IMG/VR virus record: IMGVR_UViG_2519899835_000003
Reading direction: 5' to 3' (one strand)
Length of the DNA: 64,000 nucleotides
DNA from: a virus
Taxonomy: Duplodnaviria > Heunggongvirae > Uroviricota > Caudoviricetes
Position 1 is the stretch's first letter; each line of letters begins with the position of its first letter. Under the pieces are notes generated by a model, which saw only the letters and a list, made by a program, of their open reading frames with translations, was not told where the DNA came from and did no database searches. Of this stretch, positions 6,011 through 52,409 are shown piece by piece. Position numbers and translations under genes: made by a program.

Positions 6011-6136
6011 CCACTATTACCAAAGAGCGACTGCTGACAATCAAGCAGTGGCGCGAAACATACGGACCTGGTAGCAACGTTGTACTGCCAGCAGAAGAAG
6101 CGGAAGAACTGGCACGAATTGCACTGGCATCACTGG

Positions 6137-6667
6137 ATGCGCGAACAGATTCGCCACGAGCATGTCAAATGGTCTGACTCCACATTTGGCTGCGTTGGCC
6201 CCATTGGTCCGCTGAAACATCTCTCAAAAGAGGCTCTGGAAGCTGCAGCCGAACCAGACGATCTTAGCGAGTGGGCTGATATGCAGTTTCTGTTGTGGGA
6301 TGCACAGCGCCGTGCTGGTATCAGTGATGCTGAAATTACCGCTGCTATGGAAAATAAATTGAAGATCAACATGGAACGCCAGTGGCCTGAACCAAAAGAT
6401 GGTGAGCCTCGCTTGCACATTAAAGAACGCGGCAACTCTCCGGTAACTCCGGGTGGTTGGATAAGCTGTAGTGATCGAATGCCGGAAGACACCAAAATGT
6501 TACTGGCATTTAGTCAAGGTGAAATCGTGGCCGCATATTGGAACTGGGTTGTAAATCCAATTGATTACAAAAAATATAGAGCTTTCACGTATTTATCAGG
6601 AAATATCTTGGATGACGTAACTCACTGGATGCCGCTACCAGAACCGCCGAAGGAGGTACGCCAATGA
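6137..6667 (+). CDS. DUF550/DUF551-like prophage protein (N-terminus uncertain, possible frameshift with an ORF starting near 6007)
   Basis: C-terminus ...THWMPLPEPPKEVRQ is shared with the protein at 49821..50465. An upstream 57-codon ORF (MTTITKERLL...) in another frame resembles the N-terminus of that paralogue. Confidence 0.45.
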   Translation: MREQIRHEHVKWSDSTFGCVGPIGPLKHLSKEALEAAAEPDDLSEWADMQFLLWDAQRRAGISDAEITAAMENKLKINMERQWPEPKDGEPRLHIKERGNSPVTPGGWISCSDRMPEDTKMLLAFSQGEIVAAYWNWVVNPIDYKKYRAFTYLSGNILDDVTHWMPLPEPPKEVRQ

Positions 6668-6753
6668 CCTAGCCTGAAGCATTTGCAATTGTAGTGGCTG
6701 CCATTTCGATCGCACTGATTGTTTTTGCGATTTGCCGCTGGGGGTAAAATAGT

Positions 6754-7068: not shown

Positions 7069-10000
7069 TTAATCCACTCCCACTTTTTTGTTGTACTCGC
7101 GGTTAAACCGATCCACGGCAACCTTCATATCCCGCTCTACCGATTTCACCATCGCCGCCTGCTGCGCCAGACTGAGAGAACTGTCGGCATAAATGGCATC
7201 GCGCTGTTTGCGCAAATCCTTCAGTCTCTTCCGGGTATCCTGCATAAGCCCGTTCATCAACAATTTTCCGTTGTTCTCGTCAATGAACGCCGTTCTTTCT
7301 GCACCGGTCAGACTCTTCAGCTCTGCGTGATACTGCGCAACCTCTGTCATCCGGTCGTACATCTTCTGCTGGTCTGCATACGGCATCACCTCACCCGAAA
7401 TTTTCCCCAGGAAGGGCACCTGCTGTTCCGGTATATCAATACCATTCAGCGATTTCACCGCCGCATCCGTGGTTTTGGAAATGAAGCGCCCTGTCCCTCC
7501 GGAGATATAGTCAATCCAGAATTTCAGCGATTCCGGTGTGATATCCACCGCGCCGGGACGATACTGGCTGCCACCTGAGAACGCATTCAGCCAGAATGCA
7601 AACGCCTTGTACGCTTCTGGCGTTGAACGTCTTCCCAGCTGGCTGTCAGGTTTTGGTGTACCAAACGGCATGTTCTCCTGGTAAATCTGCGCCCCCATGA
7701 AGTTTTCGTTCATGGAAAGATTCGCAAACGGACGCAGAATTGTCGGTGCTGCATTTTTCAGCAATGCCCCCGACAACGTTTCCGACGTCTCGCTGCCGAT
7801 CGGGCTGAATGCCCCCAGGATACCGCCGACAACATTACCGGCAGCACGTGAAGCAGTCAGGTCGCCCGCTGCCACACCTTCAGCTGTATGACCAAGCAGG
7901 AAGAACACGTTGTACCCGTAAGGCAGAGGAATACTCCAGTACTCACCGGCCTTGCCCCCGAACATCGATTTCATGATGACGAGGTTACGCTCTTTCACAT
8001 GAGACGGTACTTTGTCGTACCAGTTAACCCCGTCATCATCCTCACCCGCCACACTGCGGTTAAGCGAGCCAAGCAGATAACCCGCTCCCACAGCTGCAAG
8101 CACGATTTTCTGCGGTACATTGAGATTCTTCCAGCGAAGGCGCTCCAGTAACGGCCCGTCGCCATTAAGATGTCCGAGCGTTCTCACCAGGTTTGCGGTC
8201 CCCTGAATGCTGGCGTTGGCAAACATGTACAGCGAGTTCATCAGCATCCCCTGCTCACCACGACGGTTAAAGTTCACCGTCATGTTTTTGGCAAGAGACG
8301 CCGCCTGCTGGCGTGACAAACCGGCATCACGGGCGTGTTTATAGGCAGAAAGACGCAGAGCGTTTTCAACCGCGCCGTTGGCATCCTCGACCAGGTTCAG
8401 GAACGAATGCCATGCACCGATACTCTGGCCTTTCCATCCGCCCTTCGCCAGCGACACAAGGCGATCCATTTCCTTCTGCTGGCCCTCAAGGTCACCCATG
8501 TTAAACCAGCCGGTTTTACCTCCGTCCTCAACAAACTCTTTCCACACTTTCTGCCACTGTGCGCCTTTGCCCGTGAGGGTTTTACCCCGCAGACTTGCGT
8601 ATACGGCTGACATGGCGGAACGGCTGTCTTTCACCACAGCCAGCGCGGATAAGTTATCCAGCTCTTTCAGTTTACCGTCGCTCCTTCCCTGCTCAGCCTT
8701 CAGGTTCATCACCGCAGTCTGCACGTCACGGATGAAGTTACTGACCAGAAATTCCGGGTTATACGACGTGTTCACCGTTGCCAGGAAGCGGTTAACTTTC
8801 CCCAGCGTACGGATTACGGCGTTACTGGTTTCCGGCCCCATGTTCTTCATCGCACGCATCAGGCGCGGATCATGAAGTTTAATGTAGTAAGTTTTGCCGT
8901 CCTTTTTGGTGGTGAAGTAGCGATCCGCCATCATTGCCATCGGCACAGGGCGCTCGACAACTTCGCGAATGGTTTCACCAGTTTCCTGGTCCTTGCGCTC
9001 TGCAATCACACGCATTGTATCCGGTCTGTCATCAGTGAATACCTGCCAGTAATCCTTGTCGGGATTATCCTGTACCAGTTTCAGGAAGGCGTTACCCACT
9101 TCATTTTTGCGATTGCGGATCAGCGATTCACTCAAATCCTGTATCGCCTGAGTGGAAGGAGACTGTGCGCGGGATGCACGCCCCATGGCCTGCTTACTTT
9201 CACGCCCGCCGATGGTGAATCCCTTGCCTGTACGTGGCTGTGACACCACACCGTCAACATCCTGCCCTTTCAGGGGGACGTAGTAACGGTAGGCTTTCTG
9301 CCAGGCATCCACCACGCCGCTCTCTTCCAGTCCTGCCTCACGGATAATCTCACGGCGACGGGCCAGCATATCGTCAATAATCCCTGCCAGACGGTCATAC
9401 TGTGCCTGTTTGCCGCTGTTACGCACACGCTGCATGATTTCCGTCGCTTCCGCGTTGGTCATCCCCGAACCGCCGTCCGGCATTTTCGGGTTGATTTTCG
9501 CAATATGCACGTTACGTTCCGGCGCGTGACGGGCGTAGAGGTACTCATCCAGATCGGCCTGCGCAATTTTGTAGTCCGCCAGCAATTTGGCCAGCGGCTG
9601 AACGTAGCGCTCCTTCATTACGTTCAGGTCGTTTTCCGCCTTCCCGTGGAAGAGTTCTTCAGCCATATAGGCGTTATTGCTGTCATCTATTTTTCCGCCA
9701 GTTTTACGGATATTCTCCTGCACCGCCTTCAGCACCTGGAATTTATCCTGCATCTGGCGAACAAAACGGGATGCAATTGTCTCTTCCGGCGTCAGACTGC
9801 TGGTGCGGGAGTAATACGGCCCCTTGCGAATATCTTCAGGATAGAGTATTTTATCAACAGAGCCGCGATAAGAATGTTCCCCTTTGGGCAATTGGAGCCC
9901 TCTGTGCAGAAGGTTATCGCGGCTTAATTTTTCTCTCCGGTACAACGTTAAACCGGTCATTTCCATACTCTTCAGTTTTTTCCCGTTTTCCGTACCGTAA

Positions 10001-13000
10001 ACAGATGCCACCTTGTTGATTTCCAGGCGCGACCGGACAGCCTTCATGTGTACCGCTGACACCACCGGATCACCATTTTTATCCACGGCATCAAGCAGCA
10101 TCACAACCGCGTTTCTTTCTGTCGCGGAACGGTAAATTGCATCCGGATCGTGCATCAGTTCCGGTAGTCTCTCGATAACATCCATCGGCACCACATGTTT
10201 CACACCATTGGTGGCCTTACGCACAGTGTCGCGGGAGATAACCAGCGGCAAATCTGGTGCGCCAAGGTGACGCAATACCGGCGGCGTACGCCCGATGTTT
10301 ACCGTTAAATCCGTTGAGCGCAGAGACTTCATCATTCTGGCAAGGTCATCACGATAACGCTCGCCCTCACCTTCCGGCACTTTGAACGGATCAGGCTTAC
10401 CGCTACGGGAGTACTGAGACGATGCGTCCGCGCCATCCTCACGCGGCGTGTAACCTTCCCGCACACGCTGGCCTAACGTGCGAATAGTTTCGCGAACAAG
10501 TCTGATATCGTTCAGTTCCGTCGGCTTCAGTAACCCCGTACGACGCAGTACCCCTTTGACCAGGGCAACAACACGCTCCCATGCCGCCACGAATTTAATC
10601 GGCTGCTTCTCTGCCATATGCGCCAGAAATTCACCCGCCTGCACTTCCGGTGATTCCTTACCATAAGACGCATCAACCTTACGCCAGGCTTCACGGATGG
10701 TGGCGTTATCACTGTCACGGGTTTTCAGCACGGTCTTAATAATCGTCTGATATTCCGCTGGCGTGACTACATGCTCCATTGCATGGTGAATAATCTCGTG
10801 ACGTAACTTCTCGCGAACGGTCCGCCCGTCAGGGATGTTATCCGCCACCAGGACAATTTCACGTTTATCCGGACGATAGAACGCGTGCACCTTGCCGTAA
10901 CCGTCGAATGATTCACCCGCCAGTGCTTCAGCCTCTTTCTGTGACTTCACCACGCGGACCTTCAGGTCACTGTCCTTAATGCCACTAATCACGCCACGGG
11001 CAACAGCTTCAACCTGCGGGACCGGACTGCCTTTGGCTTCCGCACTACGGTTAACATCCGAAATCAGATTGCCTTCAGGTGTGCGGGTCACGCCCTTACG
11101 GGAATAAAACGCAACTCCCTTGTCCGTCTCACGGGTTTTCAGTGTTCGGAACAAGTGATCGAATGCCTCACGAATACCGCCATCCAGTTCTGCATTCGTC
11201 GGATAAGCGTAGGTGTCCGGCTGTCCATGGTCATCCGCCTTACGGATATTGACCAGATAATCATTCTCCACGCCAGCCATACGCGCTTTATCCTGAACAT
11301 AACGCTCAAAGGCTCGCGCCGCCATTTCAACATCCGTTGACCAGTACGGTTTTGAACGAACGCCATCCAGGCGTTCAGAACGACGCAACATGTCACTGCT
11401 GTTAATGGCTTTCATCACGCCTTTAAACGCGTCGTAAACCTCCTGACGTACCGGATATTCCGCATCAACATACCTGCCGTCTTTAAATACGCGCACGGCA
11501 CGCTGTGCTTCCGTCATATAGTCGCCACCTGACGTGATCTTCCCGTCAGTGGAAACATCATAACGACCAAAATAATTATCCAGTGAATGGAACCATTCGT
11601 GGGCCAGCGCCCCCGGTCCGTTACCTTTTGTCAGGTTGATTGCCACCTCACCCGGCTCATAGTGTGCCGCCGCCTTACCCTTACCACGGGCACCAAAAGC
11701 AAGCCCAAGACGACCGTTCAGAGAAAGCGCTTTTGTCGGCACGTTCAGCACGTCAGCCAGGTCATGCAGCGAGTCATAAGCCCGGTTCAAATCAGCCTGA
11801 CGACGCGGACTTTCCACATAATTACCAAACTGCACACCACGAAAACCAAACGCATCACTGAACTGCTCCGGCGAAACATCCCCCTTGCGGCGTTCTGGTC
11901 CGGTACGATCGCGGTTGGTGGCGTTACGCTGCTCCTCACGCGAGACTTCACGCAGCGCCTTCACCTGATTAACCAGCTCATCACGATGTGTGCGCACATA
12001 ATCATGTGCATCACGGGCAGACTCAAAACCGCCCTTCAGTTTCTGCCTGTTTTTGCCATAACCGATAAAAATGTCGCCACTGGCCTTATGCCGGTACACG
12101 TCAAAGGTTATTCTGTCATCAGCAGAGGTTGCTGGCGTTTCCCTTTCTCTGGAGCCTTGTTCATCGAAATATGCTTTCGCCTTTTTCAGTAACTCATCCC
12201 GGCTTTCCGAGAAAAAGAGGTCGCGCCCCTTGCTATCACGAAGCGAATACATCATTTGCGGCGGATCGTAACGTTTTCCCCCGACAAACGAATAAACACC
12301 GGACCTGACACGATAGCCGGATGCTTTATCAATCTGCAATGCAGAAAGCGTACGGAGCAGTTTCCAGGTATCCGACATGCTCCGTAACCCCGGCTTACTG
12401 TCCATCATATCAGCCAGTTTCGCTGCCGGAATTTTCCCCTCCAGCATACCGGCAGTAGCTTCGCGACCGCTTTTAACAATGCTGATCCATTTCTGCATGT
12501 TACGGCTTGTTCTGGTGGGAATTTCACTGCGATACAACGCCATCATTGCCAGCGTGTCACTATCCACACCTTCTTTTTCCAGACGGGCATAATCCGGCTT
12601 TGGAAACAGTTTGCTCAGTGGTTGTGTCGCGTACTCCCCATCCTCCAGCGTTTTACCCATAGCTTCAGCAAGCTGCGCATAACGGTGTTTTGCCGCGCCC
12701 TTAATCTCCTCGCCAAAGTCTTCAATTTTCGCACCACGCACCTGCTGGTGAGTGCTCGGTTTATCTACCGGCACCGGCACCTCAGTATCCGGAACATCGG
12801 TTATGGTCTGGCGATTATCCCCGGTCTGTCTGCGTGCTTCTGCCTGCTGTGCCAGTTCCGGAAGGGAGTCACGAACCATACGAGGGAGTGATTCAGGCTG
12901 TGGCATATCAACCCCACGCTGACTTTCAGGTGCAGGAAGTCCTTCACGCACTGGTGCTGTGGCGTTCTGCTCATCCGGTGACGGCAGACCACGACGAACT

Positions 13001-15420
13001 GTTTCGCCCTCCAGTATTTCCCCCTGGCGACCAGCGGCATTTTCCGGTGCCTGCGCACGTCCTTTCTGGAAACTCTGGCCCTTCACCTCACCGGTTGTGG
13101 TAAAACGACCACCACGTCCGGCCTGATTTTCATCCGGCGTACGCGCCACTTCTCCTGGTAACGGATATCCCTGTCCGGGATGAATATCGCCGGGAGCGGG
13201 AAGGCGTGGACGCTCAGTTAACTCCTGTGCTGTCGGACCGGCATCACCTTCAGCCATCTGGGAACGCACCAGTTCTTCCGCCGTCGGCGCGTTGCCACGG
13301 GCAAGACGGGCCTGCACTTCTGTATCATCCCCCGTAAAACCACGGAATCGCGGGTCACGCATGAACGCGGGCTGTTCCATCGGATCAGCATCAGTAATAC
13401 GCTCTCCGTCAGCCAGAGTGTTAATGGTCTCCGTTGCCACATCTTCAGAGAACGCAGGATTATCCATTTCAACGGCATACTGATTCTCGCCTTTCTTCAC
13501 TACGGACGGTTTCAGGCCGGTGGCGCTGGCATTGCGGAAAACGTCGCTCCCCAGAGCACTTTTTTCATCCGTGAAATAACGGTTGTCCGGACGCACCTTT
13601 TCAATGCGTTCTGCTGGTCTGGACGCACCACTCTCGTTAATTTCAATACGAACTTCATCCGGATCGCGGAACCGCACCGTCGGGTAAATACTCCCGTCGC
13701 CATCATCCGCATTTTCCGGCTGTGGCTGTGCCTCCGGTCTGGCCTCCCGCTGAGGGCGAAGCACATCACGTATTGCCTGTAACTGCTGCTCTTCAGTATC
13801 AGTACGCCCTTCCTTCTGGCTGAGTTTTCGGTATTCCTCAAGCAGTTCAGGGCGCGGCTTCGCCTTCAGCTCATCCATCACCGCCTGTCGCTTCGCCTGT
13901 TCATCCAGTTCATTCAACAGCTGGCTGGCGGCTTCCCGGCGATGAACGGCAGACGTGTCTCCCTCATGTGCCATATCCGCATCAGCATACTGTTCCAGAA
14001 GCTGCTCGCGATTCATCCCCTGCATAGATTCACGATGCTGTGCCACCGGATCAACCGGTTCGGGTTGCGGAGCCGATTCGTCCTGAGGAACGCTTTCAGC
14101 CTCACGCATGGCTGCTTCATCTGCCGCCTGACGTTTTCCACGATATCCGGCAGCCGCACCGAATGGTGCCCCCATTGCAGCACCAAGGGCTGCACCTTCG
14201 ATCGTTGCGTCAGCCACGCCCTCCCACGGTGACACATCCATTCCGGCGGTCTCACGCAATGCCGTGTTTTCCTGATAGCGTGAATAGCCACCCTGCGCCG
14301 CATTAATCGTCCCCTGTTCCGTGGCATTTCTGACAATGCCGCTTTTAACGGTCTTCGCCGTGCCCCGCATCGCCAGATTAAGCAACTGAGCATCGCCCAG
14401 TTTTGCCGCCATGGCATTCACAGCCAGCAATTCAGGATCGGTTGCCAGTTGCGCACGCACCTCATCGGCAACACGCTCTTTTGCCAGGTCCATTTTCTGG
14501 CGGTCAGTAAGCTGCGCGTGCTGCGGATCTGCATCAATTGACAAAAAGGTCTGCTGAAATTTCGGTGACTTCGCCAGCTCAGAATAATCCGCGTTAAGAA
14601 CAGCATCTGCCGCTGCCATTGCACTCCGCCCTTGCGCACTGACAGTGGAATGGGTGATCAGGCCTGCCTGGAAAAAATCCGGCATTTTTTTATCGACAGC
14701 TTCGGCTGCCAGTGCTGTGGCTCTTTCCGGCTGCATCCCTACCGCGATGTATTTTTTCTCCAGCCCGGCGGTCAGCACTTTTCGCAGAGTGACATCACCC
14801 AGCTTTTTAGTCACACCGCCTGCAACCATATCCGGTACAAGCGCACCAATCAGGTTAACCCCTTTCGCTACCCAGACCGCTGAATCATCATATCCTTCAG
14901 TCATCGGTGTATTCAGCGCCCGCTGCGCCCCCGGCGACATCTTGCCAGTCAGCCATTCATCCGAGGCTTTAGCGCCGCCACTGACTGCCTTGCCTGTGAC
15001 CTTCAGACCTTTACCGACAGTATCAGTAACCGCATTTTTTCCATCAGGCAGAGTGTCGATGACCTCATCCGCCCCCTTGCTGCCACCGACAAAAATATCC
15101 TGAACAGTTGCTACTCCCGGCAGCCCCATACGGCTGAACTCATTTAAAATACGTGCCCCTGTTTTTACCGGGCTCTGAATCATCGCATCACCGAGTCCAC
15201 GGGCCATTTCCCCTGTCCCCCGGACGGACTGGGCGACACCTTTCCCCATAGTTGGCAATACATCGCCCAGGCTGAACGACGTGCTGTTGTCCTTCCAGCG
15301 ATTGGGATCGGAGAAAAACACATCATAGCTGTCAGTCTCTCCCGGCTGCTGAATGTTCAGGCTGTTGCGGCTCTGGTTGCCAAATTGCGCTTCAGGGCGC
15401 TGTTCATCGGAATAAGCCAT
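7069..15420 (-). CDS. Giant multidomain virion protein (2,783 aa) with two HExxH zincin-like motifs; probable injected internal/ejection protein
   Basis: Single uninterrupted 8,352-bp ORF with ATG start, last gene of the minus-strand virion module. Contains ALAHEWFHSLD (about 11,590-11,600) and LRHEIIHHAMEH (about 10,775-10,800). Confidence 0.8.
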   Translation of the reverse strand: MAYSDEQRPEAQFGNQSRNSLNIQQPGETDSYDVFFSDPNRWKDNSTSFSLGDVLPTMGKGVAQSVRGTGEMARGLGDAMIQSPVKTGARILNEFSRMGLPGVATVQDIFVGGSKGADEVIDTLPDGKNAVTDTVGKGLKVTGKAVSGGAKASDEWLTGKMSPGAQRALNTPMTEGYDDSAVWVAKGVNLIGALVPDMVAGGVTKKLGDVTLRKVLTAGLEKKYIAVGMQPERATALAAEAVDKKMPDFFQAGLITHSTVSAQGRSAMAAADAVLNADYSELAKSPKFQQTFLSIDADPQHAQLTDRQKMDLAKERVADEVRAQLATDPELLAVNAMAAKLGDAQLLNLAMRGTAKTVKSGIVRNATEQGTINAAQGGYSRYQENTALRETAGMDVSPWEGVADATIEGAALGAAMGAPFGAAAGYRGKRQAADEAAMREAESVPQDESAPQPEPVDPVAQHRESMQGMNREQLLEQYADADMAHEGDTSAVHRREAASQLLNELDEQAKRQAVMDELKAKPRPELLEEYRKLSQKEGRTDTEEQQLQAIRDVLRPQREARPEAQPQPENADDGDGSIYPTVRFRDPDEVRIEINESGASRPAERIEKVRPDNRYFTDEKSALGSDVFRNASATGLKPSVVKKGENQYAVEMDNPAFSEDVATETINTLADGERITDADPMEQPAFMRDPRFRGFTGDDTEVQARLARGNAPTAEELVRSQMAEGDAGPTAQELTERPRLPAPGDIHPGQGYPLPGEVARTPDENQAGRGGRFTTTGEVKGQSFQKGRAQAPENAAGRQGEILEGETVRRGLPSPDEQNATAPVREGLPAPESQRGVDMPQPESLPRMVRDSLPELAQQAEARRQTGDNRQTITDVPDTEVPVPVDKPSTHQQVRGAKIEDFGEEIKGAAKHRYAQLAEAMGKTLEDGEYATQPLSKLFPKPDYARLEKEGVDSDTLAMMALYRSEIPTRTSRNMQKWISIVKSGREATAGMLEGKIPAAKLADMMDSKPGLRSMSDTWKLLRTLSALQIDKASGYRVRSGVYSFVGGKRYDPPQMMYSLRDSKGRDLFFSESRDELLKKAKAYFDEQGSRERETPATSADDRITFDVYRHKASGDIFIGYGKNRQKLKGGFESARDAHDYVRTHRDELVNQVKALREVSREEQRNATNRDRTGPERRKGDVSPEQFSDAFGFRGVQFGNYVESPRRQADLNRAYDSLHDLADVLNVPTKALSLNGRLGLAFGARGKGKAAAHYEPGEVAINLTKGNGPGALAHEWFHSLDNYFGRYDVSTDGKITSGGDYMTEAQRAVRVFKDGRYVDAEYPVRQEVYDAFKGVMKAINSSDMLRRSERLDGVRSKPYWSTDVEMAARAFERYVQDKARMAGVENDYLVNIRKADDHGQPDTYAYPTNAELDGGIREAFDHLFRTLKTRETDKGVAFYSRKGVTRTPEGNLISDVNRSAEAKGSPVPQVEAVARGVISGIKDSDLKVRVVKSQKEAEALAGESFDGYGKVHAFYRPDKREIVLVADNIPDGRTVREKLRHEIIHHAMEHVVTPAEYQTIIKTVLKTRDSDNATIREAWRKVDASYGKESPEVQAGEFLAHMAEKQPIKFVAAWERVVALVKGVLRRTGLLKPTELNDIRLVRETIRTLGQRVREGYTPREDGADASSQYSRSGKPDPFKVPEGEGERYRDDLARMMKSLRSTDLTVNIGRTPPVLRHLGAPDLPLVISRDTVRKATNGVKHVVPMDVIERLPELMHDPDAIYRSATERNAVVMLLDAVDKNGDPVVSAVHMKAVRSRLEINKVASVYGTENGKKLKSMEMTGLTLYRREKLSRDNLLHRGLQLPKGEHSYRGSVDKILYPEDIRKGPYYSRTSSLTPEETIASRFVRQMQDKFQVLKAVQENIRKTGGKIDDSNNAYMAEELFHGKAENDLNVMKERYVQPLAKLLADYKIAQADLDEYLYARHAPERNVHIAKINPKMPDGGSGMTNAEATEIMQRVRNSGKQAQYDRLAGIIDDMLARRREIIREAGLEESGVVDAWQKAYRYYVPLKGQDVDGVVSQPRTGKGFTIGGRESKQAMGRASRAQSPSTQAIQDLSESLIRNRKNEVGNAFLKLVQDNPDKDYWQVFTDDRPDTMRVIAERKDQETGETIREVVERPVPMAMMADRYFTTKKDGKTYYIKLHDPRLMRAMKNMGPETSNAVIRTLGKVNRFLATVNTSYNPEFLVSNFIRDVQTAVMNLKAEQGRSDGKLKELDNLSALAVVKDSRSAMSAVYASLRGKTLTGKGAQWQKVWKEFVEDGGKTGWFNMGDLEGQQKEMDRLVSLAKGGWKGQSIGAWHSFLNLVEDANGAVENALRLSAYKHARDAGLSRQQAASLAKNMTVNFNRRGEQGMLMNSLYMFANASIQGTANLVRTLGHLNGDGPLLERLRWKNLNVPQKIVLAAVGAGYLLGSLNRSVAGEDDDGVNWYDKVPSHVKERNLVIMKSMFGGKAGEYWSIPLPYGYNVFFLLGHTAEGVAAGDLTASRAAGNVVGGILGAFSPIGSETSETLSGALLKNAAPTILRPFANLSMNENFMGAQIYQENMPFGTPKPDSQLGRRSTPEAYKAFAFWLNAFSGGSQYRPGAVDITPESLKFWIDYISGGTGRFISKTTDAAVKSLNGIDIPEQQVPFLGKISGEVMPYADQQKMYDRMTEVAQYHAELKSLTGAERTAFIDENNGKLLMNGLMQDTRKRLKDLRKQRDAIYADSSLSLAQQAAMVKSVERDMKVAVDRFNREYNKKVGVD

Positions 15421-18684: not shown

Positions 18685-18825
18685 CTACTGCTTACACTGT
18701 AAGAACGCCGCAAACTCCGCTCCCCACAAATTCAGCCGGAACTCACACAGTGAACCGTGCAACATCCAGATGGTGAAGATAACCGTCATGCAAATTGTGA
18801 CGGTGATAAGCGATTTTTGCGACAT
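18685..18825 (-). CDS. Hok/Gef-family type I toxin (46 aa), not in the supplied ORF track
   Basis: ATG with AAAAGGAG 7 nt upstream; MSQKSLITVTICMTVIFTIWMLHGSLCEFRLNLWGAEFAAFLQCKQ has the Hok fold signature (single TM helix, then SLCE.R...E.AAF). Frame anchored against the overlapping plus-strand ORF 18552..18776. Confidence 0.6.
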   Translation of the reverse strand: MSQKSLITVTICMTVIFTIWMLHGSLCEFRLNLWGAEFAAFLQCKQ

Positions 18826-42133: not shown

Positions 42134-42619
42134 GAATCCTCCCGGCCGGGATAATATTGTGAGTAAAATAAGGAGCGGGCTGAAGTCCGGAAGTTACAGG
42201 ACAATGGCAGAAGGGAGACTACAGCCCGCAATTCGAAAAAGGTCGCGCAGTTGCGCAGAGTGATTACTATGGGGTATTATTCGCCAGCTGAAATATTACT
42301 TCACGTTTCATTGTTCATTCCTTGCCGCCCGCGTCTCCCAGCGCGGGCTTTTTTGTCCATAAGAAAGCCCCTCCGGAGAGGGGCTGGAGAGTGGCGCTAT
42401 GTGCCATTGCATGGTGCCGGGTGCCTCCCGGTGAGTTCAGCCCGGTGCCACTAAACCCGCGTCATTCTCGTTTTGATAATCAGAGATTATACCGTCACCA
42501 GTCGCCCCTCCGCTCAGGGGGATTCACCATGCAGTTTTTTCTAACAAATTCTCATCCGGGCAGACAACATTCAACTGACTTAATTGTGAGGTATGTAACA
42601 TTCCCGTTGAACGGATACA

Positions 42620-44897: not shown

Positions 44898-44927
44898 GTC
44901 CTCTCATATTGAAAATTCAGCAATAAA

Positions 44928-44955
44928 AAACCCAGCCGAAGCTGGGTTTGTTAAG
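44928..44955 (-). terminator. Rho-independent terminator after the antirepressor gene (approximate)
   Basis: CCCAGC-CGAA-GCTGGG hairpin with T run on the minus strand. Confidence 0.5.
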
Positions 44956-46513: not shown

Positions 46514-46567
46514 TATTCCCTCTCACTGGATTTTCCCAACAAAAAAGGAGCCGAAGCTCCTTTAGTT

Positions 46568-47233: not shown

Positions 47234-47575
47234 AATGACCTCGCGTTTCGATAATTTTTACCTCGCCACCGTCAGGTGCTAATCATCGTGGTGGCGAACT
47301 GTGCGGGGTTAGCACTACCGGTCGAAACATCCGGCGAGCCTTTCGGCTCCCCCACACAGCCCGCCATAAATCGCGAATGTGACTGTGCTTAGCGCATAAA
47401 AAAACCGCCAGCGCGGTTATGCACCGTTTCGATATCCGGGGTGCTAATCCCGACGCCAGGTTTTGCTGGCGCGTGAGGAATATAGCCCCGAACACGCGAC
47501 GTTGTCAAACTGATGGCATTGCAGATCCCTACGCAATGTAACACTATGTGTTATACATTAATAACGGAACAAAAA

Positions 47576-47946
47576 ATGCGCATTTTTAAAAACGCCTGGT
47601 TTGAGCGATTTGCACGCAAAACAAAATATCCGACCAATCACTGCGCGAAATTGTTAAACAGGCTGATAACGGGCTTATCTCAGCAAACCTGGGTAACGGC
47701 GTTATCAAGCAACGTCTGCCACGAGTCGGTGGCGGCAAATCTGGCGGTTATCGCACAATCATTTTCTATCGCGTCGGCACAAGGGCCTTTTTCGTATATG
47801 CATACGCAAAAAATGAACGTGAAAATATAACCGCTACTGCGGAAAGTGCATTTCGGAAGGCGGCTCCTCACGTACTCAATCTAACAGATGAACAACTGGC
47901 ACAACTGATTCTACAGGGTCAGTTTACGGAGGTACCCAATGAGTAA
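47576..47946 (+). pseudogene. HigB/RelE-family type II toxin, interrupted by a 1-nt frameshift in an A-run near 47,618-47,626
   Basis: Frame 1 gives MRIFKNAWFERFARKTKY... then unrelated sequence; the adjacent frame gives ...QSLREIVKQADNGLISANLGNGVIKQRLPRVGGGKSGGYRTIIFYRVGTRAFFVYAYAKNEREN...EVPNE, ending in ATGAGTAA overlap with the antitoxin start. Confidence 0.55.
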
Positions 47947-48256
47947 AAATTACCGCAGTGATGCGCTTGCATCCGTACATGAAATGATGGAATCGCTTCA
48001 TGATATCGGCGCAGTAACGAAACAGACTATGCGAGAATTCGATGAAACTTGTCTCCAGCCAGCGCCGGTAATGTCTCCGGAAAGGATCCGTGCACTGCGC
48101 GAACGAGAGCATCTGTCTCAACCTGTTTTTGCCAGATACCTCAACGTCAGTAAAAACCTGATATCAGACTGGGAACGTGGTGTAAAACGGCCGGGAGGTG
48201 CCGCTCTTCGCCTTCTTTCAGTCGTAGAGAAAAACGGAATCCAGGTAATATCATGA
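47939..48256 (+). CDS. HTH XRE-family antitoxin (HigA-like)
   Basis: 105 aa with C-terminal HTH (LSQPVFARYLNVSKNLISDWERGVKRP); start overlaps the toxin stop. Confidence 0.65.
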   Translation: MSKNYRSDALASVHEMMESLHDIGAVTKQTMREFDETCLQPAPVMSPERIRALREREHLSQPVFARYLNVSKNLISDWERGVKRPGGAALRLLSVVEKNGIQVIS

Positions 48257-48269
48257 TACTCCAATACAA

Positions 48270-48292
48270 CAAAACCCGCCGAAGCGGGTTTT
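48270..48292. terminator. Bidirectional hairpin terminator between convergent genes (approximate)
   Basis: AAAACCCGC-CGAA-GCGGGTTTT with A run before and T run after. Confidence 0.45.
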
Positions 48293-48306
48293 CATTAGAA
48301 GCACCT

Positions 48307-48792
48307 TTAGTTTTGCTGTTCTATTTTAAGCTTGATAGTTTCATACAAAACAATAGTTGCGCCTGTTTTACATAATTCCCGGCTGTCATACGCACGAGAC
48401 CAATAACACAACCAGTTCTCGAGATCTTCTCGAGTATAGGTTTTGCAGGCCAGTCCCTCTGCCATTTCCACGATTTCATCGCCTGGTGCTGTTAACTCAT
48501 AGCCATTCAACAACAAGAAGACATAACCAGCCATCATAGCTGTTCGTTTGTTTGCATTAGCAAATGGATGATTCTGAATCAGACTTTCAATCAATACTGA
48601 TGCCAGTACAAACATGTCATTAGTCTGTTCATACCATCGAACCATGCTGGGACGAGACTGAGAAGAACTTAAATTATCAACACTCAGCACACTAACAGGT
48701 TCATCTGGTGTTTGAAGCTCAATTAAAAGGCGATTAATTTCGGTAAGATCATCAAACGAAAGGTAGTGCACTCCTTCAACAATCTCAGCCAT
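48307..48792 (-). CDS. Doc (death-on-curing)/Fic-family toxin
   Basis: HPFANANKRTAMMAGYVFLLLNGY matches the Doc motif H-x-F-x-(D/N)-A-N-K-R. Confidence 0.6.
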   Translation of the reverse strand: MAEIVEGVHYLSFDDLTEINRLLIELQTPDEPVSVLSVDNLSSSQSRPSMVRWYEQTNDMFVLASVLIESLIQNHPFANANKRTAMMAGYVFLLLNGYELTAPGDEIVEMAEGLACKTYTREDLENWLCYWSRAYDSRELCKTGATIVLYETIKLKIEQQN

Positions 48793-48810
48793 AGAGCACA
48801 ATACCCATCA

Positions 48811-48990
48811 TTACACTTTTGAAAGTTCTTCCATTGCCTTCTCGTAACGAGAAAAACCGAAATCGAAAGCATTTTTCACCTGCTCACGATGAGTGCAATT
48901 TTCATCGATAGCCGGGCGCGGAGCTGCCACAACGCTTTTATCGCGAGGGGGAATAGTCAATCGCGGGTGTTTTTTTAGTGCGTAGCTCAT
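48811..48990 (-). CDS. Putative cognate antitoxin of the Doc-family toxin
   Basis: 59-aa ORF immediately upstream on the same strand with a 6-nt gap; no family motif recognised, call by genetic context. Confidence 0.35.
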   Translation of the reverse strand: MSYALKKHPRLTIPPRDKSVVAAPRPAIDENCTHREQVKNAFDFGFSRYEKAMEELSKV

Positions 48991-49199
48991 TGGGTGTACC
49001 CTTACTTCTCCGTCCTGTTCTTTAACAAAAATCAAGTCAATACAAAATTAGTCAGGCTAATGTTGTTAGCATAGCCTAATACCAATCGTATTCACAACCA
49101 CAGTAAGTGAAAAAACCCGCCGAAGCGGGTTAAGTGCGGGTGCGTTGAGGATGCCTGACACATCAGAGGTGGCGAGGGATTTCTCCCTCGCCGGGTCTC

Positions 49200-49412
49200 T
49201 TACTCCTCAGGTTCGTAAGCTGTGAAGACAGCAACCTCCGTCTGACCGGTTCGGATTCGTACCTCGCATAGGTCTTTCCTCGTTACCAGTGCCGTCACTA
49301 CGACGGTAATACAGATGACGATCAGGGCGACTAACATCGCCTTTTGCTGCTTCATAGCCTGCTTCTCCTTGCCTTTCGGCGCGTAAGAGGCTAACCTACA
49401 TGTGTCTAGCAT
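49200..49412 (-). CDS. hok: mok/hok type I toxin locus (Hok toxin = 49200..49355, in-frame Mok extension to 49412)
   Basis: MKQQKAMLVALIVICITVVVTALVTRKDLCEVRIRTGQTEVAVFTAYEPEE is a canonical Hok/Gef; upstream in-frame MLDTCRLASYAPKGKEKQA mirrors mokC. Hairpin plus T run downstream near 49,112-49,132. Confidence 0.8.
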   Translation of the reverse strand: MLDTCRLASYAPKGKEKQAMKQQKAMLVALIVICITVVVTALVTRKDLCEVRIRTGQTEVAVFTAYEPEE

Positions 49413-49600
49413 GAAATTGGCCTCAGATTAATGTTAGGCGTCTTGCAGGACGCGTAATGTTAACTGGGGTTTTTCTCTGTCTGCCTTACGGTGGCATGCC
49501 CGAGGCAGACAGCCTCAAGCACCCGCAGCAATTCTACTTAACTCTCGCTTTACCGCAAACCGTTTTTACCCGATATGGGAATTCCCATATCGTAATGAAT

Positions 49601-49705
49601 TCAGTTCCCTAGTCGATCCATCAAAAACACAACCAGGCAGTAAACGCCCACAACAGCAATAACAGCCAGCGCACCTTCCATTGCCAGTGATATATCATCC
49701 GACAT
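49601..49705 (-). CDS. Candidate small hydrophobic peptide gene (34 aa), not in ORF track
   Basis: ATG with AAGGAGGG 7 nt upstream; MSDDISLAMEGALAVIAVVGVYCLVVFLMDRLGN, one predicted TM helix. Confidence 0.3.
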   Translation of the reverse strand: MSDDISLAMEGALAVIAVVGVYCLVVFLMDRLGN

Positions 49706-49740
49706 ATTCCCTCCTTTGGTGTTAATCCCGGCGAACGTTT

Positions 49741-49824
49741 TTACCCCCACCGACAAATAACATATACTAAAAAAGTGATAGCCATAGCAACGCCTGTAAT
49801 TGCAAATGCTTCAGGCCAGTTCAT
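49741..49824 (-). CDS. Candidate small hydrophobic peptide gene (27 aa), not in ORF track
   Basis: ATG overlaps the stop of the upstream gene (ATGA) with AGGAGG upstream; MNWPEAFAITGVAMAITFLVYVICRWG. Confidence 0.3.
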   Translation of the reverse strand: MNWPEAFAITGVAMAITFLVYVICRWG

Positions 49825-50405
49825 TGGCGCACCTCCTGCGGCGGTTCTGGTAGCGGCATCCAGTCGGTTACATTGCGGCTCTGTGTTTCGAAAAATTCAT
49901 CACCATCACGGACTACATCAAAAAACTCACCGTCTCGATATTGCGCATAAAGAACGAATGCGCCATCACATAAAATAATTACGTGCTGACCGTCATCCGG
50001 CATTCGCTCACTACAGCTTATCCAACCATCCAGAGTTACCGGATGGTTGGTTGACGTTTCCGAGATTTCCCGAAAATTATTGGTTGACGAACCCTTCTTT
50101 TCCCGAAAGTTTCCAGCCTGAAGCATGGCGGCGCTGTCTGGCGGGGCAGCATATAGCGGCACGTATATTTCCGGTTCCTTATCAGCACCGGGTTGCTCTT
50201 CCAGTGAGAATGTCTTTCCGGTAAATCGATTCATATAAAGCACGGGCTCTGCTTCCAGCGAAGCCTGAGCAACAAGGGCCAGTGCTAAATCCAACTCAAT
50301 TGCCTCGAGAGAATTTTTGAATGCTGTCTGTTTTACTGCAAATTTCATCGCCTTTACATTTTCACTAACATGACTGATTAACTGCTCTTTTGTAAAAGTG
50401 GTCAT
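49821..50405 (-). CDS. DUF551-domain prophage protein
   Basis: Start set at MTTFTKEQ after the conserved junction RBS; C-terminus ...DWMPLPEPPQEVRQ paralogous to 6137..6667. Confidence 0.5.
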   Translation of the reverse strand: MTTFTKEQLISHVSENVKAMKFAVKQTAFKNSLEAIELDLALALVAQASLEAEPVLYMNRFTGKTFSLEEQPGADKEPEIYVPLYAAPPDSAAMLQAGNFREKKGSSTNNFREISETSTNHPVTLDGWISCSERMPDDGQHVIILCDGAFVLYAQYRDGEFFDVVRDGDEFFETQSRNVTDWMPLPEPPQEVRQ

Positions 50406-50461
50406 CTCATTCTCCTTTGATGCGAATGCCAGCGACAATTGAAGCCTGATAGCTAATTTAC

Positions 50462-50872
50462 TCACAGTACCGCCTCCTGAAAATTCCCCTGATAGAAAGC
50501 CAGCACGCGCTGCATAACTTCACTATTCCGGCACTCGCGACAGATTATGTTCAGGCGTCTATCGTAGCGGCGAATTTCTCCGTCTGGTAACTTTCGAATC
50601 AATGTCTGGTCAGTTGTTTTCTCCGGTGTCTTACGCCATACGCGATACACCTGTTCTGATGCAAAAACACCGTATTTACCGGACATGTATAAATCGCCAC
50701 AAGCCAGTACATCCACAAGGCAACGTCTGACTGAATGCCAGCCTGCTCCCGTCGCTCTCTCCAGTTGCGATATCGTCATGCGTTCATTTTTGCGTACCAA
50801 TCCGATAATTCGTGCCTTCAGTTCTTCCCGCTGTTCGTGTGTAAAAGGTTTCGCCATAAGCGCCTCCGGCAA
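50462..50872 (-). CDS. Hypothetical protein (136 aa)
   Basis: ORF overlapping neighbours by 4 bp in the post-replication region; C-terminal CRECR motif. Confidence 0.45.
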   Translation of the reverse strand: MPEALMAKPFTHEQREELKARIIGLVRKNERMTISQLERATGAGWHSVRRCLVDVLACGDLYMSGKYGVFASEQVYRVWRKTPEKTTDQTLIRKLPDGEIRRYDRRLNIICRECRNSEVMQRVLAFYQGNFQEAVL

Positions 50873-51668: not shown

Positions 51669-52409
51669 TCACATACCCTGACGTCCAACGTTTGACCGCC
51701 AGCTCTCCCAGTTAAAATTCACCCAACGACCACCGTTCATGGTCATCCGGTCCATAATCCTCTCACCAAGAAGCGTGCTCATTGCGGCATGATTCAGGTT
51801 TGTCAGCATCCCGACACTGCGCAGTGATGCCGTCCGGCGGTCAACAATCTGGTGCAGTACCACCTGCTCGTTTTTCGTCTCACGCTGGATGCCAATTTCG
51901 TCAAGAACCAGGAGGTCCACTTCGCACAGTTCACGCAAAAATTTTTCCCCTGACAGTCCGTCGTCATAGCTGGCATGTAACGCGCTCATCACATCCGCCA
52001 CGGTGACCACTATCACGGATTTACCGGCCTTCAGCAGACGATTACCCACAGCCGCCGCCAGATGATTTTTTCCGGTTCCCGGATTCCCGCTGAACACGAA
52101 GTTTGTATAACTGGTCATCAATTCATCGACAATGGATTTCGCCTGGCTCAGAGCATGGCGCTGACCGTCGTTCTGCACCCGGTAGTTCCCGAATGAGCAC
52201 TTCCTGTGAAGCGGCTGGATGCCCGCACGGTTCAGGATTTTTTCAACCCGCGCCTGATGATTCAGGCGGTTAATTTCCTCGCTGCGCTTACGGCCCTCAG
52301 CCAGTTGCCATTCCCGCCATTCGTCGGTCGTCCGGAACGGTGCTGCCACGTGCGGTGGTGCCAGACGGCGCACCCGTTCAAGAATCCCTCCAGTCGAAAT
52401 GTTTTTCAT
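51669..52409 (-). CDS. DnaC-like helicase loader (IstB-type AAA+ ATPase), functional analogue of lambda P
   Basis: Walker A FSGNPGTGKNHLAAAVG and Walker B LLVLDEIG. Confidence 0.8.
   Translation of the reverse strand: MKNISTGGILERVRRLAPPHVAAPFRTTDEWREWQLAEGRKRSEEINRLNHQARVEKILNRAGIQPLHRKCSFGNYRVQNDGQRHALSQAKSIVDELMTSYTNFVFSGNPGTGKNHLAAAVGNRLLKAGKSVIVVTVADVMSALHASYDDGLSGEKFLRELCEVDLLVLDEIGIQRETKNEQVVLHQIVDRRTASLRSVGMLTNLNHAAMSTLLGERIMDRMTMNGGRWVNFNWESWRSNVGRQGM

Follow-up and report, generated by a model that had tools for sequence, protein, structure and literature searches.

A probable mosaic slot with a hok/mok/sok locus and two type II toxin-antitoxin cassettes in the nin region of an Escherichia coli prophage

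The stretch of viral DNA studied here (IMG/VR record IMGVR_UViG_2519899835_000003; 64,000 nucleotides (nt), and referred to at its full length of 64 kb as the window) carries three toxin-antitoxin (TA) loci in the region between positions 47576 and 49824: a RelE/HigB-2-type toxin gene with a HigA-2-like antitoxin gene, a Doc toxin gene with a partner gene encoding 59 amino acids (aa), and a hok/mok/sok locus. We consider it probable that this region is a mosaic "moron" slot in which two type II cassettes have recombined in alongside a conserved hok/mok/sok locus, itself located where the replication-side accessory genes end, and that the modules act independently of each other. This reading draws on the gene identities, the lesion in one of the toxin genes, the conserved synteny, the RNA folds, the cassette boundaries and the population distribution that we document below. 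A sequence-only reading of the same DNA had already reported three TA loci packed into about 2.3 kb, and each of the elements it listed was recovered at or near the place given for it; Pfam, Rfam, TIGR01550 and PDB matches bear out the family to which each of the three modules was assigned. Such a packing lies far above the genome-average density of TA loci, and insertion of cassettes into a mosaic would account for it. A literature search for TA modules in the nin region returned nothing specific.

The region under study is 100% identical to the corresponding DNA of E. coli FORC_069. Over the slightly larger interval 47300-50000, identity is 100% to the chromosomes of E. coli strains FORC_069, FORC_043, FORC_029 and NCCP 13905, and 98-99.8% to strain ML35 and the O104:H4 outbreak lineage. 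Judged from the RefSeq annotation of FORC_069 and our list of open reading frames (ORFs), the element is a stx-negative lambdoid prophage read on the minus strand. Its genes run from CII through the replication genes (with a DnaC-like ATPase at 51669-52409), DUF1627, DUF977 and DUF551 (49821-50465) to the TA region, which is followed by genes for an ORF6N antirepressor, NinB, NinE, Ant, KilAC, DUF1364, RusA, NinH and Q. The TA loci thus lie between the replication genes and ninB, and "nin region", the label used previously, is a fair one for a site flanked by DnaC-like, DUF1627, DUF977 and DUF551 genes on one side and by ninB, ninE and the following genes up to Q on the other. In the O104:H4 lineage the copy lies in a prophage without stx that stops directly after the lysis genes, where a chromosomal gene adjoins, and that looks like a remnant. 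On these grounds we rejected a link of the cluster to Stx phages.

The three modules do not travel as a unit. Among 5,426 complete genomes, 217 carry the RelE-HTH module (HTH, helix-turn-helix), 125 the Doc cassette and 33 the full cluster. Strains O157 F6294, APEC O1 and 120899 carry hok and Doc without RelE-HTH, FHI_NMBU_10 and HCP4S3_I4 carry hok and RelE-HTH without Doc, and strain 2013C-3033 possesses RelE-HTH alone. When prophages were sampled by their DUF977/DUF1627 genes, hok was positioned at the border of the variable accessory genes and the nin genes in six of six, and the cargo on either side of it differed among these six. Across 13 sampled prophages, the cargo at this same position varies between conserved flanking genes, as one would expect of a slot; most of the relatives sampled have hok here. 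Since the modules occur independently of each other, nothing suggests a joint function of their combination, and our sequence analysis gave no sign of a function that the modules would have only together. In strain ATCC 8739 (locus L024, 1685-4578), the interval between DUF977 and hok holds, on the opposite strand, an ATP-dependent nuclease and a cytosine methyltransferase, a cargo of a more obviously defence-like type.

The boundaries of the Doc cassette are marked by a terminator hairpin with the 18-nt core AACCCGCCGAAGCGGGTT. Its left copy (48273-48290) lies between the convergent HTH and doc genes, and its right copy (49114-49131, minus strand), identical to the left, is the terminator hairpin of hok. 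This core occurs exactly twice in the window (starting at 48273 and 49114), with no copy expected by chance, and the 841-bp Doc cassette lies between these two copies, which form a direct repeat. HCP4S3_I4, a strain without Doc, possesses a single hairpin copy, which on its left joins the end of the HTH gene and on its right the 3' end of hok. The simplest reading of these junctions is that the Doc cassette entered the prophage, or can leave it, through recombination of the terminator it carries with its identical counterpart at hok. If this is true, the position just 3' of hok would be a dedicated swap site for type II TA cassettes in lambdoid prophages. The hairpin belongs to a family of four related terminators with UUCG/CGAA loops (family D3; 44926-44952, 46541-46567, 48269-48295 and 49110-49136), with one terminator closing each of the accessory cassettes (Ant, ORF6N, Doc and hok) at its 3' end. 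Weak Rfam matches resembling rsmX, istR and isrK (48268-48358 and 49110-49197) proved to be merely this repeated hairpin and were discarded.

The hok/mok/sok module is complete, as far as can be read from its DNA. On the minus strand, the ORF list, Pfam and phrog_251 identify a 70-codon mok (49200-49412) that contains, in the same frame, the hok gene for a protein of 51 aa (49200-49355); mok is an in-frame extension of hok up to position 49412, a layout shared with mokW of phage 933W. Hok matches Pfam HOK_GEF with E=1e-23 and 82.6 bits against a cut-off of 22. The Rfam sok model RF01794, which represents the hok-strand leader, is matched over its positions 1-157 with 110.3 bits (gathering score 59). 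The sok gene on the plus strand (49369-49474, promoter and RNA) was mapped from sokW of 933W through a gap-free alignment. The predicted Sok RNA (approximately 49404-49474, plus strand) begins with a single-stranded 5' tail, continues into a long hairpin and ends in a U-run (fold z=-5.3); a sok-like RNA had been guessed at 49,400-49,470, and the prediction falls in the same place. Its promoter, read by eye and below the threshold of a generic scanner, consists of TTGCCT (49369-49374), a 17-nt spacer and TAACCT (49392-49397). Rfam, folding and alignment together predict a full-length hok mRNA of 417 nt (49108-49524, minus strand), just upstream of which lies a TAGAAT -10 element. In the minimum-free-energy fold (z=-7.0), the 5' end of this mRNA, GGGUGCUUGAGG, pairs with the 3' element CCUCAACGCACCC, a predicted fold-back inhibition of the type that characterises this family.

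The closest studied relative of this module is hokW-mokW-sokW of the Stx2 phage 933W (Sp5 of strain Sakai), a type I TA system of the Hok/Sok family, with about 92% DNA identity over hok, mok, sok and the leader, and 86% identity between the Hok proteins, whose seven amino-acid changes fall mostly at the C-terminus. The position of Sok equals that of the annotated sokW, mok is an in-frame extension in both, and the same ORF for a 27-aa peptide is found just upstream. The two loci differ in that the one studied here lies on the nin side after the replication genes, whereas that of 933W is found near attR, and in that an additional cassette with a 34-aa ORF separates the 27-aa ORF from the hok promoter here. 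For hokW-sokW, toxicity of HokW and its neutralisation by SokW have been demonstrated experimentally; upon treatment with mitomycin C, SokW vanishes and HokW is made in a RecA-dependent manner, and deletion of the locus halves the release of Sp5 (PMC8621323).

The NCBI annotation pipeline (PGAP) labels the hok gene of this prophage "hokD". In the Qin prophage of E. coli K-12, the relB-relE-hokD operon (relBEF) contains a hok-family gene as the third gene of a relBE operon, and to our knowledge this hokD has no sok of its own. With its hok-family gene adjoining a RelE-type module in a lambdoid prophage, relBEF is the classical precedent for the neighbourhood described here. It differs in that the hok gene of the window comes with the full set of mok, sok and fold-back elements, while the type II cassettes lie downstream on transcription units of their own. 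Decay of hok was encountered in APEC O1 (locus L017, 4407-4559), where codon 4 is a nonsense codon (MKQ, then stop) and the annotated gene begins internally; decay therefore reaches the hok loci of this site as well. Elsewhere in the window, a weak Hok-like tblastn match (18703-18819, minus strand; 34% identity over 41 residues, E=5e-4) may represent another hok-family remnant.

The second module, which is intact, encodes, on the minus strand, a Doc (death-on-curing) toxin of 161 aa (48307-48792), recognised by TIGR01550 (E=1.4e-35; 122 bits against a cut-off of 38.65) and by phrog_577 ("Doc-like toxin"), and related to the PDB entries 9vzc (E=1e-12) and 3k33, the Doc protein of phage P1 (E=1e-4). 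Its motif HPFANANKR fits the consensus HxFx(D/N)(A/G)NKR, in which a Lys replaces the Gly of Fic proteins and which has been linked to kinase, not AMPylase, chemistry (PMC4177925). A C-terminal tail of about 25 residues is poorly conserved. The gene for the 59-aa partner (48811-48990, minus strand; phrog_2208, an unclassified family) ends 18 nt upstream of doc. An antitoxin-Doc pair on the opposite strand had been proposed before, and both genes are indeed present on the minus strand; the start of the partner is ATG 48990, not TTG 49035. The 74-aa version that would begin at this TTG was rejected because, of the four homologous loci, two carry stop codons ahead of the ATG and the other two do not conserve the translation of the upstream part.

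On the strength of its synteny, we regard the 59-aa protein as the likely antitoxin of Doc, belonging to a family other than Phd/YefM and having no DNA-binding domain. It is found on over 1,000 contigs, labelled either "hypothetical" or "bacteriophage protein", and gave no match in Pfam, NCBIfam, PADLOC or PDB. Homology to Phd was rejected, given that Pfam, NCBIfam, the PDB sequence search and a comparison with P1 Phd by hhalign were all empty; this Doc module consequently has a partner from a different family. The family is small: a set of 5.8 billion proteins contains 17 clusters of it. When 1.84 billion representatives (50% identity clusters) were searched with a profile, 39 matched at E<=0.001, 37 of them 38-95 aa long (nearly all 44-95 aa) and the remaining two spurious long proteins. 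Members precede a Fic/Doc gene at a distance of 6-18 nt in four contexts that are unrelated to each other, i.e., the E. coli nin region, a tail/baseplate module of Ewingella, a TA cluster of Salmonella and a site beside dinI/umuDC. In every independent context with a classifiable downstream gene, the partner directly precedes Fic/Doc, and both genes are present in all 125 E. coli matches to the cassette. AlphaFold2, run on the family alignment, places residues 34-57 in a confident helix, which is the invariant part of the family (..QVKNAFDFGFSRYEKAMEELSKV); the N-terminal half is of low confidence and predicted to be disordered, and no DNA-binding fold is predicted.

According to one review, all Doc toxins pair with Phd (PMC4177925). 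The module described here resembles Phd-Doc of phage P1, a type II system whose Doc is an EF-Tu kinase, in its toxin family, the Doc-type motif and a small partner gene upstream. Phd neutralises Doc through its C-terminal helix, and the partner described here is likewise predicted to end in a helix. Differences from the P1 system are that this 59-aa partner does not belong to Phd/YefM and has no predicted DNA-binding fold, and that Doc carries the poorly conserved tail. PaaA2, the antitoxin of the O157 paaR2-paaA2-parE2 system, is short, largely disordered and free of a DNA-binding domain. The 59-aa protein might work like it, as a short, disordered antitoxin that would neutralise its toxin via a helical segment; we claim no sequence relation between the two, and a third regulator gene is not evident beside the Doc pair. 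The 59-aa protein may represent a narrowly distributed new family of Doc antitoxins that neutralise Doc with a conserved C-terminal helix and do without a DNA-binding domain. That it founds such a family and that, in addition, the hairpin shared by hok and Doc is a recombination joint are linked readings, and we advance the two jointly as a plausible but still tentative proposal. In Salmonella enterica GCA_011585245.1 (locus L009, 3496-6009), four TA modules occupy about 2.5 kb of a prophage (hok, the same pair of 59-aa protein and Doc, ParD/ParE, and VapB/PIN), an independent case of TA clustering around hok and Doc.

The third module, on the plus strand, is a toxin-first module of the RelE superfamily that has recently lost its toxin and is decaying. 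A frameshifted HigB/RelE-type toxin with an XRE antitoxin had been described from the letters alone, a description borne out by a PF06296 toxin gene with a 1-nt deletion and an intact HTH_3 antitoxin gene. ORFs, Pfam and alignment with intact alleles delimit the toxin pseudogene to 47576-47946. Its reading frame is broken by a frameshift after codon 15: from ATG 47576, 15 native residues are followed by out-of-frame sequence up to a stop at 47830, and the first 34 residues of this frame match the start of PF06296 with 20.5 bits, below the family cut-off. The remaining 112 toxin codons are in frame at 47608-47946 and match PF06296 positions 15-120 with 124 bits, and a conceptually repaired toxin matches the family in full (positions 1-120 of 120) with 154 bits. 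Alignment with intact alleles shows what the lesion is: CGC-AAAAA-C has lost one of its five A residues, and four remain at 47618-47621. For the downstream frame, PGAP annotates a coding sequence at 47608-47946 (112 aa, 113 codons) whose first codon is ATT and which carries no pseudogene flag; the ORF list contains no ATG, GTG or TTG start in this frame.

The antitoxin gene (47939-48256, plus strand; HTH_3 in Pfam; WP_000042397.1) is intact, overlaps the toxin stop by 8 nt in a toxin-first operon, and has a strong ribosome-binding site (GGAGG) of its own. Among solved structures, HigA-2 of Vibrio cholerae is the best relative of the antitoxin (E=8e-8), and HigB-2 is that of the toxin (E=5e-3). 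With HigB-2/HigA-2 the module shares the pairing of a RelE-superfamily mRNase with an XRE antitoxin, the toxin gene in first position, the overlap of stop and start, and an antitoxin composed of an N-terminal extension and a C-terminal HTH; the relation is distant, however, and the toxin of the window belongs to PF06296 and is frameshifted, so that only the antitoxin can be made. Among the 32 listed copies with at least 99% identity, ten have the 731-bp length found in the window, 21 measure 730 bp and one measures 732 bp. All but the last (31 of 32) are shorter than this sole intact allele and have a broken toxin, and the 730-bp representative that was aligned, from O104:H4, shows a second 1-nt deletion. 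The 732-bp copy, from the pig isolate HCP4S3_I4, encodes an intact 123-aa toxin (99.2% identity) and an identical antitoxin protein. Intact 123-aa toxin alleles are also present in strains 2013C-3033 and FHI_NMBU_10, and more distant intact RelE-HTH modules (92% and approximately 85% identity) were found in about 180 other genomes.

We suggest the following model for the cluster, in which each module would act as known for its own family. The stable hok mRNA would be held closed by the pairing of its 5' and 3' ends, and the short-lived antisense RNA Sok would cover the mok start, leaving the hok mRNA untranslated. Once transcription of sok stops, whether because the prophage is induced, because the DNA is lost or because an infecting phage shuts transcription off, Hok would be made and would depolarise the inner membrane. 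Doc, a Fic-fold kinase, would phosphorylate EF-Tu and thereby bring translation to a halt. The 59-aa protein would neutralise Doc, probably through its conserved C-terminal helix, and the disordered N-terminal half would render it labile. The RelE/HigB-2-like toxin is dead and only the HigA-2-like repressor/antitoxin would still be made, the module being in decay or, at most, an orphan antitoxin.

Several points weigh against this model and against the mosaic slot of independent modules on which it builds. We infer that the toxins act and are neutralised, that the lysogen expresses these genes, and what benefit might follow (prophage retention, help in lysis or exclusion of other phages). Selection for a joint function, invisible to sequence analysis, might lie behind the clustering. 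The antitoxin role of the 59-aa protein is argued from synteny, the protein having no similarity to Phd, to Pfam families or to PDB entries; hhalign returned a probability of 0.2% against a P1 Phd sequence that was entered by hand, and in one metagenomic contig the partner is followed by a gene of only 76 aa with no Fic match. A promoter scan found no convincing sigma-70 promoter for the Doc operon, and the regions upstream of this operon cannot be aligned from one context to the next; for these two reasons we rejected the idea that a promoter or operator is conserved at this place.

The sequence-only reading had taken the cluster for a defence island. On such a view, the TA loci would be kept for abortive infection, and shut-off of host transcription would deplete Sok or the labile antitoxins and thereby free Hok and Doc. 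There is a case for this: hok/sok of plasmid R1 reduces the plating of phage T4 (cited in PMC8621323), TA-like systems of prophages protected E. coli in a functional selection (PMC9519451), the slot is variable and in ATCC 8739 holds the nuclease and methyltransferase mentioned above, and in the Salmonella relative hok, Doc, ParDE and VapBC lie close to one another. We nevertheless find a defence island doubtful. PADLOC detected no known defence system among the proteins encoded here and returned weak generic matches alone: the HTH protein matched regulator models, and candidate "PDC" models were matched by Doc (E of about 2e-3) and by the ORF6N protein next door. Nearly all of the close copies listed have an inactivated RelE toxin and hok carries its nonsense codon in APEC O1, two instances of decay which suggest that selection on the individual modules is not strong. 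Moreover, in the one experimental study of hokW-sokW, the locus helped its own phage, and exclusion of other phages was not found (PMC8621323); neither a Doc-type nor a PF06296-type system is among those recovered in the functional selection (PMC9519451).

A further possibility, which we likewise rate as rather unlikely, is that hok/sok mainly serves the lytic cycle of its own phage as a helper of lysis and release, with the type II cassettes as passengers. The high identity to hokW-sokW at both the DNA and the protein level speaks for it, as does the presence of hok in each of the six prophages sampled through replication genes. The effect in Sp5, however, was just twofold, and was measured for a locus located elsewhere in the phage genome, near attR; moreover, the O104:H4 prophage that ends right after its lysis genes has the appearance of a remnant. 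Abortive-infection defence, prophage retention and help in lysis are all possible and do not exclude each other; of these, only help in lysis has experimental support, which comes by analogy from the close relative hokW-sokW.

With regard to the RelE module, the HigA-2-like antitoxin could work alone, either as an anti-addiction factor against RelE toxins of other prophages or as a transcription regulator. The protein (WP_000042397.1) is identical whether the toxin is intact, singly deleted or doubly deleted, it is served by its own strong ribosome-binding site, and related intact modules (approximately 85% DNA identity) are common in prophages of O157, O145 and O103 strains (172 genomes). However, the copies compared are at least 99% identical, so their conservation may merely reflect how recent the lesion is, and FORC_069, in whose record the module occurs at one place, has no second module for the antitoxin to act on; we therefore deem such a solo role improbable. 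That the toxin is still alive, through programmed frameshifting or through the ATT start implied by the unflagged PGAP coding sequence, can be dismissed as highly improbable even though the lesion falls within an A-run, as this run is just 4 nt long, the site as read from the sequence has no X XXY YYZ slippery heptamer, the downstream frame offers no regular start codon, the second deletion in the O104:H4 lineage is what a decaying gene would show, and a product started at ATT would be devoid of the first 15 residues of the PF06296 domain. Our preferred reading of this module thus remains that of a decaying cassette in the mosaic slot.

Two mini-ORFs with strong Shine-Dalgarno sequences accompany the hok locus. 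They had been reported to follow mok/hok; mok/hok and both mini-ORFs are present, but on the coding strand the mini-ORFs precede hok, at the end of the upstream operon. We treat them as small membrane peptides of this operon, outside the TA loci. The first (49741-49824, minus strand) encodes a hydrophobic peptide of 27 aa, overlaps the stop of DUF551 in an ATGA and is not annotated by PGAP. In 933W, FHI_NMBU_10, strain 120899 and O157 F6294, a homologue of 27 codons directly precedes the hok promoter, with copies located at L005 5154-5234, L018 4779-4859, L015 2942-3022 and L016 4946-5026. At about 35% nucleotide divergence, this ORF shows no insertions or deletions, synonymous changes are about as frequent as non-synonymous ones, and its ends (MxWPEAF...ICRWG) are kept. 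It is always translationally coupled, through ATGA, to whichever gene precedes it and adjoins the hok promoter on the 5' side. RefSeq does not annotate it, and a collection of 15 billion proteins does not contain it.

The second mini-ORF (49601-49705, minus strand; WP_001278450.1, "hypothetical protein") has an AGGAGG ribosome-binding site, encodes a hydrophobic peptide of 34 aa and occurs on roughly 1,000 contigs or more; its variants show conservative hydrophobic changes. It is followed by a perfect 22-bp palindrome, CGATATGGGAATTCCCATATCG, at 49571-49592. This unit is missing from 933W, FHI_NMBU_10 and strain 120899, and the ORF and palindrome together look like an insert of about 160 bp that has a copy of GGTAAAAACG on each side. 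On the strand opposite the mini-ORFs, promoter-like sites (49681-49708 and 49740-49768) were rejected, as four were found and 4.2 are expected in shuffled sequence. A second DUF551-type gene (6080-6667, plus strand) of the window is likewise followed by an ATGA-overlapping 27-aa ORF (region 6080-6744), which is degenerate, with an in-frame stop at codon 3, and has no hok after it. Beside this DUF551-type gene lies an ORF of 2,783 aa (7069-15420, minus strand).

All three toxins come from known families and are annotated as such in RefSeq, which also annotates the HTH gene and the 34-aa mini-ORF, lists the Doc partner only as "hypothetical" and does not call the 27-aa ORF. Relative to this annotation and the literature searched, the non-Phd family of Doc partners, the hairpin-bounded cassette and the conserved 27-aa ORF are modest additions. 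The cluster is a tidy but ordinary example of selfish cassettes that accumulate at one swap site of a prophage. Its practical value is small and consists in annotation fixes for prophages of pathogenic E. coli, the O104:H4 outbreak lineage included: the RelE gene should be called a pseudogene, the 59-aa "hypothetical" protein a likely Doc antitoxin, and the missed gene for the 27-aa membrane peptide should be added. The Doc cassette within its duplicated terminator hairpin illustrates one way in which TA cassettes move at a single prophage position. If the 59-aa antitoxin is confirmed, Doc gains a type of partner without a DNA-binding domain. The current understanding of TA systems and of phage defence is left unchanged.

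The surroundings of the cluster hold two antirepressor control modules resembling immI of phage P1 (46568-47508 and 44966-45907, both on the minus strand). Each is composed of a strong promoter, c4-a1b1 target sites, isrK, a terminator, the C4 antisense RNA and an ORF6N/Ant antirepressor gene, and all of the RNA elements score above their Rfam gathering thresholds. The promoter at 47508-47479 reads TTGACA, 18 nt, TATATT. The modules lie on either side of ninB/ninE, about 1,585-1,590 bp apart, as direct repeats that have diverged, and the promoter of the first copy is divergent from the relE promoter region. Further along, downstream of the Q antiterminator gene, a full-length Rfam match to the small RNA STnc100 (165 bits) is located at 42355-42560 on the minus strand.

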